Source: a virus
Lineage: Duplodnaviria; Caudoviricetes
Virus record (IMG/VR): IMGVR_UViG_3300032007_000001
Reading direction: 5' to 3' (one strand)
Length of the DNA: 64,000 bases
Shown: in pieces, positions 1,793-54,257 of the stretch
Layout: each line of letters starts with the position of its first letter
Position numbering within the stretch: the stretch's first letter is position 1
Translations under genes and position numbers: made by a program
Notes under the pieces: generated by a model
What the model saw: only the letters and a program-made list of their open reading frames with translations
Databases searched by the model: none
Told to the model about the DNA's origin: nothing

Positions 1793-2065
1793 TCAAAGAC
1801 CAAATGTTGTTATAATTATTTTTTTGCTATTAAAAATTTTTTTTATGATTTCATCTTCAAAAGAATATGTCCAATGTTTATTATTTTTTCTAAAGTGTCT
1901 CTTCAATTCTTTTTTATCAAACATTTTGCACGGTTCGAATAAAAAATTAGTTGTATTATCCATAAAAAATGCTATTTGATAATTCATTACAACAAGATAG
2001 CAATCTAAATAAAATTTTATACCATGTATTTCAAATGTATGATAATACTTCATTTTTATTCTCAT
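1793..2065 (-). CDS. small Gly-X-terminal family protein
   Basis: ends TFGL; ATGA overlap. Confidence 0.7.
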   Translation of the reverse strand: MRIKMKYYHTFEIHGIKFYLDCYLVVMNYQIAFFMDNTTNFLFEPCKMFDKKELKRHFRKNNKHWTYSFEDEIIKKIFNSKKIIITTFGL

Positions 2066-2310
2066 AATCCAATCTTTTCCAATAAAACACCCTTAAATAT
2101 TGAAATGGCGAAGTCACTATTATCTGGATTTAGTTCTTCTATATATCCATCTTGACTTGTTGAAAATGAAAAATTATCATAATTAAAAATTATTTCTACT
2201 TTTTTGTTATTTACATAAACCATACCGCCTATAATGCGTTTTTGCCTCGTATAAAATTCATAAAAATTAAAATTCATTATGTCATATGGCATATCAATAT
2301 CCCACTTCAA
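2062..2310 (-). CDS. small Gly-X-terminal family protein (start may be 2292)
   Basis: ends KIGL. Confidence 0.65.
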   Translation of the reverse strand: MKWDIDMPYDIMNFNFYEFYTRQKRIIGGMVYVNNKKVEIIFNYDNFSFSTSQDGYIEELNPDNSDFAISIFKGVLLEKIGL

Positions 2311-2530
2311 TCATAAAATATTTTTTTCTATCTTCTACAACAAGAGCGCATGGACCAACAAATCTATAACTACTAAAATAATCAAAAATCTCGTCAAAGA
2401 TTGTATCTTTTTCTAATGCACGACATAAATCTTTTGATGATTTTGGATAAACGTTAAGAGCTAATCTATTTAATTGTTTATTTTGAGTTAAAATAAAATC
2501 AATATATGATTGGTAGCTTATAATCTTCAT
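2294..2530 (-). CDS. small Gly-X-terminal family protein
   Basis: ends EVGY; ATGA-coupled to upstream gene. Confidence 0.65.
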   Translation of the reverse strand: MKIISYQSYIDFILTQNKQLNRLALNVYPKSSKDLCRALEKDTIFDEIFDYFSSYRFVGPCALVVEDRKKYFMIEVGY

Positions 2531-2883
2531 GTAATTTTCCATTCTCCGTCTGGACGCATTTTCGCTAAAGCTAAAAGTTGATTTAATGCTCGTTTCGCAT
2601 TGCCTTCTGTAGCATTCCAATAATTGGAATCCACATTATCTTTAAGTTTATTGATAGCACTTTGAAGAATTGGAATTGAATCAACAGCCGACATACCTTC
2701 AATTTTATGAATTCCGTCTTTACCCATCACTTTTTGGAAAATACTGCTATAATTATATGTAATATTTAACCACATTTCTTTCGTACCACCAACAACATAT
2801 GTCCCACCGGTCATGAGATGCTCTGTAGTGGTCTCTAACACTTCTTTTGTTACTGGGTCAATAAGATACATGTCGTAACTCAT
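2527..2883 (-). CDS. conserved phage hypothetical protein
   Basis: AGGAG RBS; MSYD...NITYNY...YW.ATEGNA pattern recalled from phage hypotheticals. Confidence 0.8.
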   Translation of the reverse strand: MSYDMYLIDPVTKEVLETTTEHLMTGGTYVVGGTKEMWLNITYNYSSIFQKVMGKDGIHKIEGMSAVDSIPILQSAINKLKDNVDSNYWNATEGNAKRALNQLLALAKMRPDGEWKIT

Positions 2884-2901
2884 AATGCATTCTCCTTTCC
2901 C

Positions 2902-3258
2902 TTATAGCCCTATTCTTTGGATTAAATTTAATCTTTTATAAAAATTCTTAACAACTTCTATAATTGCATTTTTTTCTTCATTAGTAAAGTAATCTTTTAT
3001 AGTTTTTAAGATATATTTTTTTGTAAAAATATCATATTCATCTAATGTTTCGCAATATTCTTTCCCATTACATTTTACAATCAAATCACTTGTATAAATT
3101 TTCCTAAGTGCTATACCAAATGTATTGATACGCATTGTTCTCAATATACCTAAGTTAATTATTACAAGTATATTTCTATTTTCGCGAATAACGTAACTTC
3201 CAGTAAATTGTCCATGATTACTGGAGAATGATTTTTCTTGTACTTTATAGTCCATCAT
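2902..3258 (-). CDS. small Gly-X-terminal family protein
   Basis: ends RIGL. Confidence 0.7.
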   Translation of the reverse strand: MMDYKVQEKSFSSNHGQFTGSYVIRENRNILVIINLGILRTMRINTFGIALRKIYTSDLIVKCNGKEYCETLDEYDIFTKKYILKTIKDYFTNEEKNAIIEVVKNFYKRLNLIQRIGL

Positions 3259-3529
3259 GCAAAACCTTTTTATAAAATGATTGACGAATGATTTTATCTA
3301 TCCATTTATAATATCTAGCAAAGACTATCTTTCTTTTTAGATTCATTCTTTGAGATATTCTTTTCATATCATTAAAGTAGTCGTTATTGTATCTTATGAC
3401 AATAGTTTCTCTAAAAGAATCGTTTAAGATAAAAACTGCATAAATTTTATTAAATTCATATTTTTCGCTGAGCAATAGATTTATTTTCAATTGTATGTCA
3501 TTGTTTTTCAAAGAAAAAATTTCTTTCAT
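3245..3529 (-). CDS. small Gly-X-terminal family protein
   Basis: ends HDGL; ATGA overlap. Confidence 0.7.
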   Translation of the reverse strand: MKEIFSLKNNDIQLKINLLLSEKYEFNKIYAVFILNDSFRETIVIRYNNDYFNDMKRISQRMNLKRKIVFARYYKWIDKIIRQSFYKKVLHDGL

Positions 3530-3849
3530 AATCCGTTAACTCCAATAAAATTATTGTAGTATTTATGCAAAATATCTATAATTTCTTTATTCGAATTTAT
3601 GAGGTATCTTTGTGCTATTGGGTCTAAATTTGAATTTTTGATTTCAATGAATAGATATTGTGATAAGAAATTTATGAAATTTGGAAACAAAATAAATGTA
3701 AAGATAGCATTGTATTGATAAGAATGACCATCATGATATGGCACATAAGTTGTTACTTGCATATATATTTTATCTATTGATGGGTCGAAACTGTTTTTAA
3801 GTCTTAGAAAAATAGTTTTATTGATATTTTCGCTGACTTCAAATTCCAT
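3526..3849 (-). CDS. small Gly-X-terminal family protein
   Basis: ends VNGL; GGTGA RBS. Confidence 0.7.
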   Translation of the reverse strand: MEFEVSENINKTIFLRLKNSFDPSIDKIYMQVTTYVPYHDGHSYQYNAIFTFILFPNFINFLSQYLFIEIKNSNLDPIAQRYLINSNKEIIDILHKYYNNFIGVNGL

Positions 3850-52230: not shown

Positions 52231-52589
52231 AAATGTTAGTAGAAAAAGAATTTCGTTTTAACAATAACAACTGTACAAGGATTTCTTATAATGAAGAAAA
52301 ACAAATCAAATTATATTTCCTTTATGCATCGTTTCCATTTGAAAAATGTGCAGTAGAAGTATACGGATTGGATAAAAATTATTTATATGCATATATTGGT
52401 GTACCGTTTTCTTTTCCAATAATAATGAAAAAACGTTTATTTGAATTGTTTGAATCTAGTTATAATATAGAAATGCTTCGCAAAACGCCAAAGAGAGAAA
52501 AACAAATGAAAGAAATCAAAAAAGAAGTATGCAGATTTTTTGAGGAGTCAATCAATAAAATGAATTGGCTTTATTCAATAGGATTGTAG
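52218..52589 (+). CDS. small Gly-X-terminal family protein
   Basis: ends SIGL. Confidence 0.7.
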   Translation: MGIVKMLVEKEFRFNNNNCTRISYNEEKQIKLYFLYASFPFEKCAVEVYGLDKNYLYAYIGVPFSFPIIMKKRLFELFESSYNIEMLRKTPKREKQMKEIKKEVCRFFEESINKMNWLYSIGL

Positions 52590-52927
52590 GAGAAAAAATG
52601 AATTATTCAACAAGATTTGAAATTGAAGAATTGAAAGCGAAAGATAATTTTATTATTGATAGTTATTGTTTTTATGTTTTTTGTCTGCAAAGTTTTTTAT
52701 CAATTCATTTGATTTATAATACAAGAGATTGTAACGTGAATGTGAAATTAAATGATTATTTTTTTGATAAAGTTGATGAAAAATATATTCTTAAAAACTT
52801 AAAAAGAGAATTGGGAATTATTAATAATTTCAAAAAAGATTTTTATGATTTTCTTTCAAAAGATATTGCAAAAAATATTAATAAAAGAGTCTTAAATAAT
52901 GAAATTATTAAAATGTTTGGTGCATGA
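52565..52927 (+). CDS. small Gly-X-terminal family protein
   Basis: ends MFGA. Confidence 0.68.
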   Translation: MALFNRIVGEKMNYSTRFEIEELKAKDNFIIDSYCFYVFCLQSFLSIHLIYNTRDCNVNVKLNDYFFDKVDEKYILKNLKRELGIINNFKKDFYDFLSKDIAKNINKRVLNNEIIKMFGA

Positions 52928-53265
52928 TGAATATAAATTTTAAGAAAAGAAAAAACAATATTTATACGTGGATAAGAATAAGAAAATTTAGTTATTGCAT
53001 TATAGTTGAAAAGAATAATAATTTGTTTGATATGTTTATAAAAAAGAAATATAGAAAGAAAAATAGTTCTCCAATTATAAAGGATAGAGGAGAACTTACT
53101 TGGTTGTGGGATGAATTCATTATTTGTGATGAAAACAAATGCATAAAAAACATATTGAATAGATATAATTATTACGATAGATTTTTTCAAGAAAAAGGAT
53201 TAATAAAGGAATTGATGAGAAAAGCTAACGAATCATTAAATACTAAATTATATTTTTGGCTGTGA
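52924..53265 (+). CDS. hypothetical protein, possibly degenerate Gly-X member
   Basis: ends YFWL; ATGA overlap. Confidence 0.65.
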   Translation: MMNINFKKRKNNIYTWIRIRKFSYCIIVEKNNNLFDMFIKKKYRKKNSSPIIKDRGELTWLWDEFIICDENKCIKNILNRYNYYDRFFQEKGLIKELMRKANESLNTKLYFWL

Positions 53266-53269
53266 TTTT

Positions 53270-53620
53270 ATGATGTTTGATAAAACAAAAGATAAACACA
53301 TATACAATAAAGATTTCAATATTATAACATATAGCATAAATGATAGAGCACAATATTTTGAATGTGATTATGATGATATTTTTATAAGATATACAATTTA
53401 TAATTATGGTCTTACTAGATTGATAATTAAATATATAAACAATAAAAAAGTAAAAAAATTTTCATGTGACCTTAAATATGATTTTTTAAGTTTGGTAGAT
53501 AATTTGATTGAACTGAAAACAAAATATGATGATAAAGATACCGATAAAAATACAATTCAATTATACATTTACTTATTAAACAAATTTATAAAATCTCTTA
53601 GTATTGTGTTTGGATTATGA
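53270..53620 (+). CDS. small Gly-X-terminal family protein
   Basis: ends VFGL. Confidence 0.7.
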   Translation: MMFDKTKDKHIYNKDFNIITYSINDRAQYFECDYDDIFIRYTIYNYGLTRLIIKYINNKKVKKFSCDLKYDFLSLVDNLIELKTKYDDKDTDKNTIQLYIYLLNKFIKSLSIVFGL

Positions 53621-53973
53621 AAAAATTAAAAATAAAACCAACAAAAAAATATAGCAAATACAAAAATGGAATGTTTATTATAACATGCAAAAACTGCGTT
53701 TATAAAATTTATGTAGAATACAATACATTGTTTAGTACTGTATTTTTTGAAATTGAAAGAACAGATAAAAATAGTAATGTTGAATATTACTTTAATAAAT
53801 TTGCAATACATTTATTAGATATACTTACTTTGGATTTGAAAAAAAGATATAGTATACCAAATAGAGAAAGAATAAGTTTTGATTCTGTTTTTTATAATGA
53901 CTTAAAAAAATTAAGACAAATGTGTTTGTTGATTATTGATTATTTCAATTTGATAAAAATAGGTGGAATATGA
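53617..53973 (+). CDS. small Gly-X-terminal family protein
   Basis: ends IGGI. Confidence 0.7.
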   Translation: MKKLKIKPTKKYSKYKNGMFIITCKNCVYKIYVEYNTLFSTVFFEIERTDKNSNVEYYFNKFAIHLLDILTLDLKKRYSIPNRERISFDSVFYNDLKKLRQMCLLIIDYFNLIKIGGI

Positions 53974-54257
53974 GTAATGCGTTTGATACAATGTTTACAT
54001 TTGATGTAAATGACGAAAGAATATTTGGTGTATTATGGATTTTTAGAAAAAACAACATGTTGATTTATAGAATAGTAGATACAGTATATGGTAAACCTAA
54101 AAAAATAGATATTTTTGTTTCAAAAAAAGATTTTTCATCCAATGTTAATGAAAAAGATATTTACGTTAAATTGAATAAATATGGATTTTCATATAAACAA
54201 TATGAAATTTTATTTAATTATATTTTGAAACGCGAAATAAATTGTCATGGATTATAG
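53970..54257 (+). CDS. small Gly-X-terminal family protein
   Basis: ends CHGL. Confidence 0.7.
   Translation: MSNAFDTMFTFDVNDERIFGVLWIFRKNNMLIYRIVDTVYGKPKKIDIFVSKKDFSSNVNEKDIYVKLNKYGFSYKQYEILFNYILKREINCHGL

Follow-up and report, generated by a model that had tools for sequence, protein, structure and literature searches.

A 504-kb phage-G-like gut megaphage encodes a family of at least 127–161 small proteins whose chains end at a strictly fixed position, one residue after a glycine (hydrophobic-Gly-X-COOH). The genes are real and under purifying selection (dN/dS 0.13–0.51), and the family is restricted to a sub-clade of phage-G relatives. The best reading, to which we give about even chances, is a single early-gene family, specific to one clade and greatly expanded, whose constant C-terminus serves as a handle for a shared partner.

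The cattle-gut phage genome (504,279 bp) contains 714 genes covering 91% of its length according to our own gene caller. The window is the whole stretch of DNA analysed here, 64,000 nucleotides long. An earlier sequence-only reading had listed about 60 ORFs with a penultimate Gly in twelve clusters; both the count and the cluster list are right, since our own calls place Gly at position −2 in 60 of the 117 genes between positions 1793 and 54257, about half, or in 61 with ORF 38655–38960, which was missed by the caller and also ends in IGL. Enzymes and structural genes had been said to lack the tag, and indeed it occurs in 60 of the 92 genes of 50–170 aa and in none of the 22 genes longer than 170 aa. 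The enrichment holds genome-wide, with Gly at −2 in 161 of the 714 genes (22.5%) and in 48% of the proteins of 90–130 aa, against 2.0% in non-gene frames (binomial P 1.6e-59). It is confined to −2, with none at −1 or −3 to −5; Gly accounts for 2.5–3.9% of residues at −1 and −3 to −12 and for 4.9% overall. Background levels were registered in Bacillus phage G, of equal size and GC content (39/664, 5.9%, with the same caller), and in G003, a relative of equal GC content (4–6%). The last residue in the 60 tagged genes between 1793 and 54257 is L (37), Y (7), F (5), E (4), V (2), A (2), R (1), C (1) or I (1), and GGATTATGA forms the end of 11 of them.

The Gly-X genes form tandem arrays with sigma-A-like promoters, located in the accessory arms of the genome. 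Exact TTTACA-N17-(TG)nTATAAT promoters precede genes at 49 sites, and of the 153 genes that follow them 75, or half, are tagged; judged from these promoter sequences, the earlier description of the genes as early-type is plausible. The arrays and associated features of the window are as follows.

1793–2053, 2062–2292, 2294–2542, 2902–3258, 3245–3529, 3526–3849, minus strand: six Gly-X genes (FGL, IGL, VGY, IGL, DGL, NGL)
2527–2883, minus strand: untagged gene inside this array
9128–9448, 9458–9811, 9825–10157, minus strand: three Gly-X genes (YGF, FGY, IGV)
10160–11353: PARP/WGR gene, upstream of the 9128–10157 array
11460–11765, 11762–12082, 12452–12742, 12742–13080, 13699–13917, 13907–14059, minus strand: six Gly-X genes (IGE, IGL, TGL, CGL, YGL, NGL)
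within 11460–14059, minus strand: two untagged genes
12452–12742, minus strand: FYPL-subfamily member, strain orthologue dN/dS 0.15
site ending at 18956 (genome 20536), plus strand: promoter-like, for the next array
18981–19313, 19316–19606, 19596–19877, 19874–20170, 20167–20475, 20778–21071, plus strand: six Gly-X genes (AGF, YGV, YGL, YGL, YGL, IGL)
20488–20781, plus strand: untagged gene in this array
21623–21943, 21963–22310, 22556–22837, 22841–23176, 23178–23480, 23761–24174, minus strand: six Gly-X genes (VGL, SGL, NGE, SGL, SGF, FGR), four of which form subfamily A3
27894–28202, 28206–28370, minus strand: two Gly-X genes (YGY, FGY)
30416–30571, 30731–31060, 31077–31334, minus strand: three Gly-X genes (IGL, SGA, IGL)
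31077–31334, minus strand: FYPL-subfamily member
37547–37569: terminator-like hairpin just before the next promoter
37575–37603, plus strand: sigma-A-like promoter TTTACA-17-TGnTATAAT at the head of the 37.6–39.8 kb array
37590–37874, 37871–38122, 38119–38400, 38410–38685, 38655/38682–38960, 38957–39238, 39235–39516, 39513–39848, plus strand: eight Gly-X genes (YGL, IGL, MGL or VGL)
41561–41887, minus strand: lone Gly-X gene (YGY) amid DNNKSxNIF family members
44068–44346, 44343–44597, 44600–44884, 44881–45159, 45156–45410, 45407–45637, 45634–45915, 45905–46252, minus strand: eight Gly-X genes of subfamily A4
46344–46838, 46892–47203, plus strand: two Gly-X genes (KGF, SGF)
46842–46870, plus strand: promoter-like site within 46344–47203
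48180–48506, 48508–48822, 48780–49130, 50081–50464, plus strand: four Gly-X genes (IGY, IGE, FGC, WGE), flanking an untagged 300-aa gene
49137–49164, plus strand: promoter-like site within 48180–50464
50565–50587: terminator-like hairpin before the next promoter
50593–50621, plus strand: sigma-A-like promoter heading an operon of nine genes, six tagged, which reaches the 51.9–54.3 kb array
51907–52230, 52233–52589, 52598–52927, 53270–53620, 53617–53973, 53970–54257, plus strand: six Gly-X genes (WGL, IGL, FGA, FGL, GGI, HGL)
52924–53265, plus strand: array gene ending in YFWL, with TGG in place of GGN

The conserved part of these proteins extends beyond Gly-X to about 12 residues, and up to 18. 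It features hydrophobic residues at −3, −6/−7 and −11 and an enrichment of Lys/Arg at −4, −5 and −9. A 14-residue PSSM, evaluated by leave-one-out, found 45 matches exactly at the C-terminus, none within 1–15 residues of it and 6 internal. In the A3 alignment the GL, GE and GF ends are paralogous, while Met1 and the terminal Gly and Leu are the only invariant positions of the A4 alignment. The previously proposed helix-Gly-X ending was correct as regards Gly-X; the conserved part is longer than described, and for the FYPLxxYIxxIGL subfamily modelling gives a coil, rather than a helix, over the final six residues.

Hydrophobic −6, Gly −2 and hydrophobic −1 also fit a Schellman-type helix cap (a motif whose definition is reportedly due to Aurora and Rose, on helix capping), which requires no partner. 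A purely structural cap is a serious rival to the handle reading, although the less probable of the two: Gly −2 would be the C' residue, the last hydrophobic residue would fold back on residue −6, the helix would pack on the β-sheet, and conservation would follow from folding, with no reader. Consistent with this, residue −6 is Ile or Leu in 42% of members, −1 is hydrophobic in most, the hydrophobic periodicity (−3, −6/−7, −11, −14/−15, −18) is helical, the predicted helix 67–91 of the model of 45634–45915 runs straight into G92 L93, and partner searches were empty. However, a chain need not stop at a cap, yet among some 160 paralogues in this genome and some 60 more in two relatives, though diverged beyond recognition, not one is extended by even a single residue. 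Moreover, the tail in the best model (gene 38410–38685, pLDDT 88) continues past Pro81 as coil and not as a capped helix, at lower pLDDT (44 at residue 91), yet it is the most conserved part, with Y80, P81 and G90 as the most conserved residues; as modelled, it looks like a linear motif. Glu and Asp at −1 in true members speak against a cap, and the same observation counts against the handle.

The earlier suggestion that the tails dock to a common partner, such as a scaffold, protease or export machinery, found no backing in searches of the phage genes. No ClpP, PDZ_2, S41 protease, ThiF (E1), Prok-JAB or clamp genes were found in the genome, and no phage gene was found to co-occur with the family across the relatives compared; genes that G001 shares but phage G and G003 lack have metabolic or structural roles. 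The phage does encode a complete ClpX (397 aa, with zinc finger, GYVG pore loop and IGFG ClpP-docking loop, and lacking the RKH loop), and the basic stretch followed by hydrophobic-Gly-Leu-COOH might be a degron or adaptor tail read by this ClpX together with host ClpP, which would imply timed clearance of early proteins or SspB-like delivery of host proteins. C-terminal signals in AAA+ proteolysis include the LAA-COOH of ssrA, the basic MuA type and the XB tail of SspB; the Gly-X tails resemble the latter two, being likewise short, C-terminal and basic (Lys/Arg at −4, −5, −9) before a hydrophobic end. We know of no bacterial AAA+ C-terminal signal with an invariant penultimate Gly, in contrast to the present tails. 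Furthermore, ClpX does not track the family: G001, 98% complete and with about 45 members, has no ClpX by tblastn, whereas phage G and G003 have ClpX and lack the family. Only 29 of the 161 ends fit [ILVM]-G-[FLM]. A role as ClpX signal seems improbable, although the ClpX of the host may still read the tails.

The bodies had been described as barely alignable, and this was borne out: sequence methods left 114 of 143 truncated bodies as singletons, and hhalign gave nothing significant. BLAST, iterative HMMs and profile–profile comparison joined few members, which is what would be expected had unrelated small proteins each gained the same C-terminal peptide, e.g. for targeting or stability. This convergent origin is nonetheless doubtful, slightly more so than the ClpX role. 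Although hhalign saw no similarity between subfamilies A2 and A4, their models (pLDDT 88 and 66) share a β-meander followed by C-terminal helices (three to four strands in that of 45634–45915), and structure searches against 48,161 chains returned the same polo-box domains at the top of both lists (Z 4.8–5.9). The genes are arranged in tandem arrays and vary little in size (median about 106 aa), N-terminal halves are uniformly β-prone relative to other small proteins, the tag is absent from the larger enzymes and structural proteins of the window, and a common founder would be in keeping with the GGA excess at −2. The two models, the arrays and the size range support common descent of all members, in line with the earlier proposals of a β-rich N-terminal part with a C-terminal helix and of one ancient, massively expanded fold. 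As in polo boxes, the modelled sheet is a β-meander under a C-terminal helix; 61–78 residues were aligned at rmsd 2.3–4.6, with Z values below the noise guide of about 8 for the VIA search. An Atlas model of DUF4160 (PF13711) matched a Gly-X model over 79 residues (TM 0.62/0.66), PF13711 had no sequence match to the family even at E ≤ 10, and Foldseek found no match for the models in PDB or BFVD. On these models, the likeness to polo boxes and DUF4160 is a resemblance of shape only.

That Gly is the by-product of a nucleotide signal (GGN-NNN-stop as an SD-like or re-initiation element, or a recombination junction) is hardly credible, despite overuse of GGA/GGG at −2 (78% versus 58% in bodies, p=6e-4), commoner tagging at tight junctions (57% at gaps of 0–3 nt) and the many GGAG ends in the relative G010. 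The tag persists in 32% of small genes where the next gene lies more than 40 nt off and in 21% of those before an opposite-strand neighbour; this independence of the downstream gene rules out a ribosome-binding or coupling site, as the sequence-only reading had argued. Coupled and uncoupled ends do not differ in their mix of Gly codons, and G as first base of the last codon is not tied to coupling in three genomes; together with downstream context, these data refute a nucleotide signal as main cause. Only 2% of non-gene frames have GGN at −2, the pattern over the upstream 12 residues is one of amino acids and not of bases, and the GGA of GGATTATGA junctions lies 2 nt from the ATG. All four Gly codons (GGA 37, GGG 11, GGT 10, GGC 2) and all three stops (TGA 38, TAA 18, TAG 4) are in use among the 60 tagged genes, as previously noted. 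The GGA/GGG skew does indicate a weak nucleotide-level overlay.

Among relatives, the trait is present in G010 and G001 (capsid proteins 85% and 81% identical) and absent in five others (73–77%), including Bacillus phage G. Identity to phage G is 76% for the capsid protein, 60% for the portal and 56% for the terminase. Gly-X ends account for 20% of small ORFs in G001 and 48% in G010, both with arrays of their own. Only 3 of 45 G001 members have a BLAST hit in this genome; the constraint on the end outlasts sequence similarity. All A2 homologues among 1.84 billion representatives end in GL or GF, and three consecutive ORFs of a related contig end in FGY, VGF and IGL. Gene 19874–20170 had no relative but itself among 5.8 billion proteins.

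Under the handle reading, each member would be a small α/β domain with a hypervariable, three- to four-stranded N-terminal β-meander and a C-terminal amphipathic helix which probably lies against the sheet as an integral element of the fold, and its chain would have to stop exactly one residue past the invariant Gly. Gly-X-COOH, whose free carboxylate lies at a set distance, would be the constant handle for one shared partner; this is most likely encoded by the host, given that no gene of the phage co-occurs with the family. Variable bodies would confer different specificities, and the family would act as a library of adaptors or effectors in early infection; a role in anti-defence or host takeover is conjecture.

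Poxvirus ankyrin/PRANC (F-box-like) proteins form a large, fast-evolving family in which variable target-binding bodies are combined with a constant C-terminal dock to a host machine. The Gly-X family is likewise large and fast-evolving, with variable bodies and a constant C-terminal element for which docking is proposed; there is no kinship of sequence or fold, the element spans only about 12 residues up to the carboxylate, and the host is bacterial. Ubiquitin-like precursors of the Atg8/GABARAP type end in YGL, FGF or FG-R, and Gly-X proteins share with them the aromatic-Gly-X-COOH end and a variable last residue, but their predicted fold is a β-meander with helices and not a β-grasp, and the phage lacks E1 and JAB. 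Jumbo phages show lineage-specific expansions of small proteins; within the same phage group, a family of about 35 zinc-ribbon small proteins has been described in Bacillus phage G (Iyer et al. 2021, PMC7824862), and both families consist of many small, lineage-restricted paralogues of unassigned function. Unlike that family, the Gly-X family has no Cys or zinc signature and is missing from phage G; with 127–161 copies it is four- to fivefold larger, and it is defined by the fixed end Gly-X-COOH instead of a domain signature.

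Gly stands at the second-last position (-2, counting from the C-terminus, with the last residue X at -1) in 60 of the 117 genes called between 1793 and 54257, and in 61 proteins of this region once the ORF at 38655-38960, which ends IIGL and was missed by the caller, is included; the sequence-only reading had counted about 60. The last residues, the Gly codons, the stop codons and the eleven GGATTATGA ends also match its description. The tag is carried by 60 of the 92 genes of 50-170 aa in the region and by none of the 22 longer ones, which bears out the claim that enzymes and structural genes lack it, and tagged genes form at least 14 arrays in the window.

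The window corresponds to bases 1581-65580 of the genome record. The entire genome (504,279 bp, 29.7% G+C, from bovine gut according to the sequencing-run metadata) was called with a codon-usage caller written for the analysis, and the 714 genes obtained occupy 91% of it. Genome-wide, 161 of the 714 proteins (22.5%) have Gly at -2, the overall Gly content being 4.9% and that at -1 and at -3 to -12 being 2.5-3.9%; the share reaches 48% among proteins of 90-130 aa, and is 2.0% in non-gene reading frames of at least 50 codons (binomial P 1.6e-59). Against the composition-matched null proposed by the sequence-only reading, for which Bacillus phage G (same size and G+C) was processed with the same caller, the enrichment stands: phage G has Gly at -2 in 39 of 664 proteins (5.9%), as at its adjacent positions, and Gly-Leu/Phe/Tyr ends are nearly absent. 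The two phages are related: identity between them is 56% for the terminase, 60% for the portal and 76% for the major capsid protein; only 111 of the 714 proteins have a phage G homologue, none of them in the first 40 kb or the last 24 kb of the record. The tagged proteins, hereafter the Gly-X family, supply a fifth of the genes of a half-megabase phage and half of those in the window, and are named by no database; the position and manner of the chain's end are all that stays constant in them.

Information content anchored at the C-terminus is high from -1 to -7 and still raised at -9, -11, -12 and -18, while it is flat in other small proteins. The consensus is hydrophobic at -7/-6, Lys at -5, Lys/Arg at -4, Ile/Tyr/Phe at -3, Gly at -2 and Leu at -1 (56%). 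A PSSM of the 14-residue tail, scored leave-one-out with the 99th percentile of shuffled proteins as threshold, matched exactly at the end in 45 cases, at 1-15 residues from the end in none, and far inside larger proteins in six; Gly is not enriched at -1, -3, -4 or -5. The position of the chain end relative to Gly is therefore exact to the residue. Proteins clearly paralogous to GL and GF members can have Glu at -1, and one array member ends YFWL, with TGG in place of the GGN of the others. A 255-aa protein encoded outside the window (genome positions 141989-142756, minus strand) matches the tail motif strongly at an internal site, where KKKFGY closes the match near residue 86 and another domain follows; this protein could be a fused member.

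Comparison of strains indicates that the Gly-X genes are real and fast-evolving. Between orthologues on two strain contigs, dN/dS is 0.13-0.51 for tagged genes, and the Gly is kept in every pair; tail identity is 70% and body identity 63%, too few data for a difference to be claimed. Tagged genes have a dS of 0.47-0.97 versus 0.08-0.12 in two neighbouring untagged genes of the same contig, a contrast that suggests exchange of alleles, or alleles of greater age, in the arrays. The alignment concerned, to window 19.6-21.6 kb, is mosaic in its divergence, the adjacent low-dS genes lying on the other strand. In three gut metagenome runs, two of them labelled sheep gut, contigs aligned to window 36.5-54.5 kb represent related strains of about 90-96% identity.

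Members lack relatives beyond the lineage. One member matched only itself among 5.8 billion proteins; the profile of subfamily A2 (FYPLxxYIxxIGL) found nine matches among 1.84 billion representatives, each with a GL or GF end, and that of subfamily A4 found this genome and one 764-bp contig only. A related 1.6-kb contig carries three successive ORFs ending FGY, VGF and IGL. In IMG/VR, neither the back-translated FYPL..YI...GL pattern nor the baits from window genes 61528-63351 and the ClpX gene found a match. The capsid protein used as bait recovered 28 IMG/VR and 67 metagenome loci, from which seven relatives were taken for comparison.

Small ORFs (60-180 aa, one uniform ORF caller) with Gly at -2, with capsid identity to the present genome
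This genome (G000), 504 kb: 33%
G010, capsid 85%, 41.8-kb fragment: 48%
G001, capsid 81%, 281 kb: 20%
G006, capsid 77%, fragment: 2%
G007, capsid 77%, fragment: 8%
G008, capsid 77%, fragment: 8%
Phage G, capsid 76%, 498 kb: 6%
G003, capsid 73%, 379 kb: 4%

The trend that was to be looked for in related jumbo phages is present in G001 and G010 which, with this genome, have capsid identities of at least 81%, and is at background in phage G, G003 and G006-G008. G001 holds 27 members within one 20-kb stretch, and only three of its 45 small Gly-X proteins have a BLAST match in the present genome, none of the three being family-type. The trait is hence limited to a sub-clade, within which the end outlasts all other sequence similarity. 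The preferred last residue is Leu in this genome, Leu/Ile/Met in G001 and Val/Ala/Ile in G010, a difference that a founder effect, co-evolution with the partner or, in the case of G010, an overlay of GGAG could explain. The capsid-gene neighbourhoods of 35 relatives contain 11 Gly-hydrophobic ends among several hundred small ORFs, and say little about the trait, since the arrays are located elsewhere.

Other genes are interspersed among the arrays:
10160-11353, minus strand, PARP catalytic and WGR protein
5144-6118, minus strand, radical SAM enzyme
47203-48174, plus strand, RlaP-type nucleotidyltransferase

A second expanded family, with 28 copies in the genome, 12 of them in the window, consists of proteins of about 230 aa that all share a conserved C-terminal motif, DNNKSxNIF[S/K/R]. 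Pfam and PHROGs contain no match to this family, and homologues are absent from G001, G003 and phage G; a partial copy (953-1612) follows Gly-X ORFs on a related contig.

Copies of the DNNKSxNIF family in the window
27105-27809
29115-29789
33359-34057
40216-40965
40971-41543
41928-42671
42731-43399
43411-44064
57829-58413
58499-59185
59195-59905
60727-61446

AlphaFold2 models were obtained for two of the four Gly-X subfamilies. That of A2 (window 38410-38685, 13 sequences; pLDDT 88, pTM 0.78) places strands at 2-7, 11-19, 22-30 and 33-37, then a helix, a short strand, helices 69-77 and 82-85, and a coil tail of lower confidence at 86-91. That of A4 (window 45634-45915, seven sequences; pLDDT 66) has strands at 5-11, 15-22, 26-33 and 49-52 and a helix at 67-91, followed by G92 and L93. 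In an exhaustive search of 48,161 chains, the top structural neighbours of both were the same polo-box domains (4rs6_A, 5lhx_A, 4g7n_A, 9fjg_A, 6n45_A, 4nkb_B and 6mf4_A), at Z 4.8-5.9, values that do not suffice to assert kinship with polo boxes, the tool's guide value being about 8. The shared neighbour lists indicate that A2 and A4 have the same predicted arrangement, a beta-meander covered by a C-terminal helix.

We infer, at about an even chance, that the helix is part of the fold and that the end serves as a handle for a single partner common to all members, which would probably come from the host. The main rival, possible though doubtful in our estimate, is a structural helix cap that needs no partner. 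Such a cap accounts for the Gly and for the hydrophobic residues at -6 and -1, and Schellman C-cap geometry, in which a helix reaches the residue preceding Gly and hydrophobic residues stand four before and one after it, fits the consensus and the A4 model, where G92 and L93 directly follow the helix. It does not fit the A2 model, in which 86-91 is coil after Pro81; a cap leaves unexplained that the conserved tail is coil in the best model and, moreover, that no member tolerates even one extra residue. If the end were a fold cap only, the family would still offer a clear case of a fold kept despite sequence divergence beyond recognition, and a useful clade marker.

Were the end instead a degron or adaptor tail for ClpX, which we consider unlikely, the reader could be the phage's own enzyme, which is complete (genome positions 151795-152988, minus strand) and keeps the zinc finger, GYVG and IGFG, the RKH loop being absent. 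The two do not co-occur in relatives, G001 having the family without ClpX, and phage G and G003 having ClpX without the family, which argues against phage ClpX as a dedicated reader. The phage genome encodes no ClpP, PDZ_2, S41 protease, ThiF-type E1, Prok-JAB, DnaN or gp45-type clamp. Phylogenetic profiling returned 56 genes present in this genome and G001 and missing from phage G and G003, the best conserved being a split anaerobic ribonucleotide reductase (NrdD), an NrdG-like activase-like protein, an amidase, a dCMP deaminase, PAAR and an epimerase; none is a candidate partner. The split NrdD, present in G001 and not in phage G, consists of two ORFs about 1.3 kb apart outside the window (genome positions 112167-115700), one with the ATP-cone and NRDD positions 1-96, the other with NRDD positions 99-534, and may reflect an intron or a mobile insertion.

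Known C-terminal motifs were also compared. Mimicry of the ClpP-docking IGF/IGL loop was rejected, [ILVM]-Gly-[FLM] fitting only 29 of the 161 ends; the -3 residue is aromatic in 45 of 161, with N, H, D, S and K also present. The beta-clamp-binding motif (QL[SD]LF or QLxLxL, as in QLVLGL of Pol IV) was rejected as well: -5/-6 is K/I/L, Gln is not among the commonest residues, and the genome has neither type of clamp. Class II PDZ ligands (hydrophobic-x-hydrophobic-COOH) were considered and, in a search of the phage genome alone, no PDZ_2 was found; the same scope applies to PF00899 (ThiF) and PF14464 (Prok-JAB), which were not found, with positive controls. A ubiquitin-like or Atg8-type precursor, whose Gly would be exposed by trimming, should have a beta-grasp fold; in the models, four strands follow one another as hairpins ahead of the helices, and no ubiquitin-like chain is among the neighbours listed.

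That the tag arose convergently on small proteins is an even less probable explanation than a ClpX tail, and it is the sequences that lend it some appeal. BLAST leaves 121 of the 161 tagged proteins as singletons, iterated HMM searches with bodies lacking the last 15 residues leave 114 of 143, and hhalign finds no significant similarity between A2, A3 and A4, so that the description of the bodies as barely alignable holds. Within A1-A4 members are alignable at 19-34% identity, and the only invariant positions of A4 are Met1 and the terminal Gly and Leu. Compared with other small proteins, those of 70-135 aa with the tag have a higher beta propensity in deciles 2-5, in line with the beta-rich N-terminal part noted earlier, and a higher hydrophobicity at residues 12-36; the Chou-Fasman contrast between N- and C-terminal parts does not differ between the two groups. 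Because of the shared predicted arrangement, the beta-prone N-terminal part, the narrow size range and the tandem arrays, we read the Gly-X proteins as one family, folds having been predicted for two subfamilies. The idea of one expanded fold is supported by this evidence; sequence methods link few members.

A nucleotide signal underlying the end is scarcely credible. Among genes of 50-200 codons, the tag is present on 43% of those at ATGA overlaps, on 32% of those with over 40 nt to the next gene start and on 21% of those followed by a gene on the opposite strand. The Gly codon mix is identical in coupled and uncoupled ends, and a last codon starting with G (giving GGAG) is independent of coupling in this genome, G001 and G010. 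A nucleotide signal therefore does not work as the main explanation, and the earlier claim of a protein-level constraint stands, since the tag persists without a nearby downstream gene and coupling leaves the codon mix unaffected. GGA/GGG make up 78% of -2 codons versus 58% of body Gly codons in the same genes (p=6e-4), a small overlay that may stem from a founder codon or a weak translational effect. In G010, the closest relative, about 20 successive small ORFs (109-8000) end hydrophobic-hydrophobic-[I/V/M]-Gly-[V/A/I], most with GGAG across the last two codons, and the tie of GGAG to coupling is not significant (p=0.19); the tail there may double as a ribosome-binding site.

The genome contains 49 exact copies of TTTACA-N16-18-TATAAT, nearly all with a 17-nt spacer and an extended -10 TG, counted from 20 nt inside to 150 nt upstream of a same-strand gene start, most of them 20-60 nt upstream and several just after terminator-like hairpins. 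The relative G001 has TTGACA in place of TTTACA. Four window sites read as follows:
37575-37603, plus strand, TTTACA-N17-TGnTATAAT promoter
46842-46870, plus strand, TTTACA-N17-TGnTATAAT promoter
49137-49164, plus strand, TTTACA-N17-TGnTATAAT promoter
50593-50621, plus strand, TTTACA-N17-TGnTATAAT promoter

In the operons behind the 49 sites, 75 of 153 genes are tagged versus 22.5% genome-wide. This pattern fits transcription by the host sigma-A polymerase, which would make the Gly-X genes early genes, as their early-type label had supposed.

The analysis shows a constraint at the protein level: in a very large, clade-specific family of small early-type proteins that share a predicted topology, Gly is fixed one residue short of the free carboxylate. 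Should the end prove to be a docking handle, baits made of tail peptides could reveal a central host or phage hub manipulated by giant gut phages, and the role of much of the "dark" accessory genome of megaphages would be explained. More tentatively, Gly-X-COOH may be an address code, in which the free C-termini of more than 100 diversified early proteins are all read by one hub, most probably a host machine. In that case the genome would encode a library of adaptors or inhibitors plugging into one socket, and the lineage-specific last residues of this genome, G001 and G010 would reflect co-evolution with it.

Among known families, no matches were found in Pfam (10 members) or PHROGs (six members), at E<=0.001 in Foldseek searches of the PDB and BFVD, or in usable form in the ESM Atlas searched by features. 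The ESM Atlas model of DUF4160 aligns at TM 0.62/0.66, a likeness in shape alone: its Pfam model (PF13711) is unmatched in the whole genome at E<=10 and in ten members at E<=1. Small-protein expansions have precedents in the phage G group, e.g. the zinc ribbon of phage G with about 35 copies (PMC7824862), and the Gly-X family is not described in that account. A fixed Gly-X-COOH end as a defining feature is unusual. If the address code were true, the family would be the counterpart, in a bacterial virus, of the ankyrin/F-box libraries of poxviruses.
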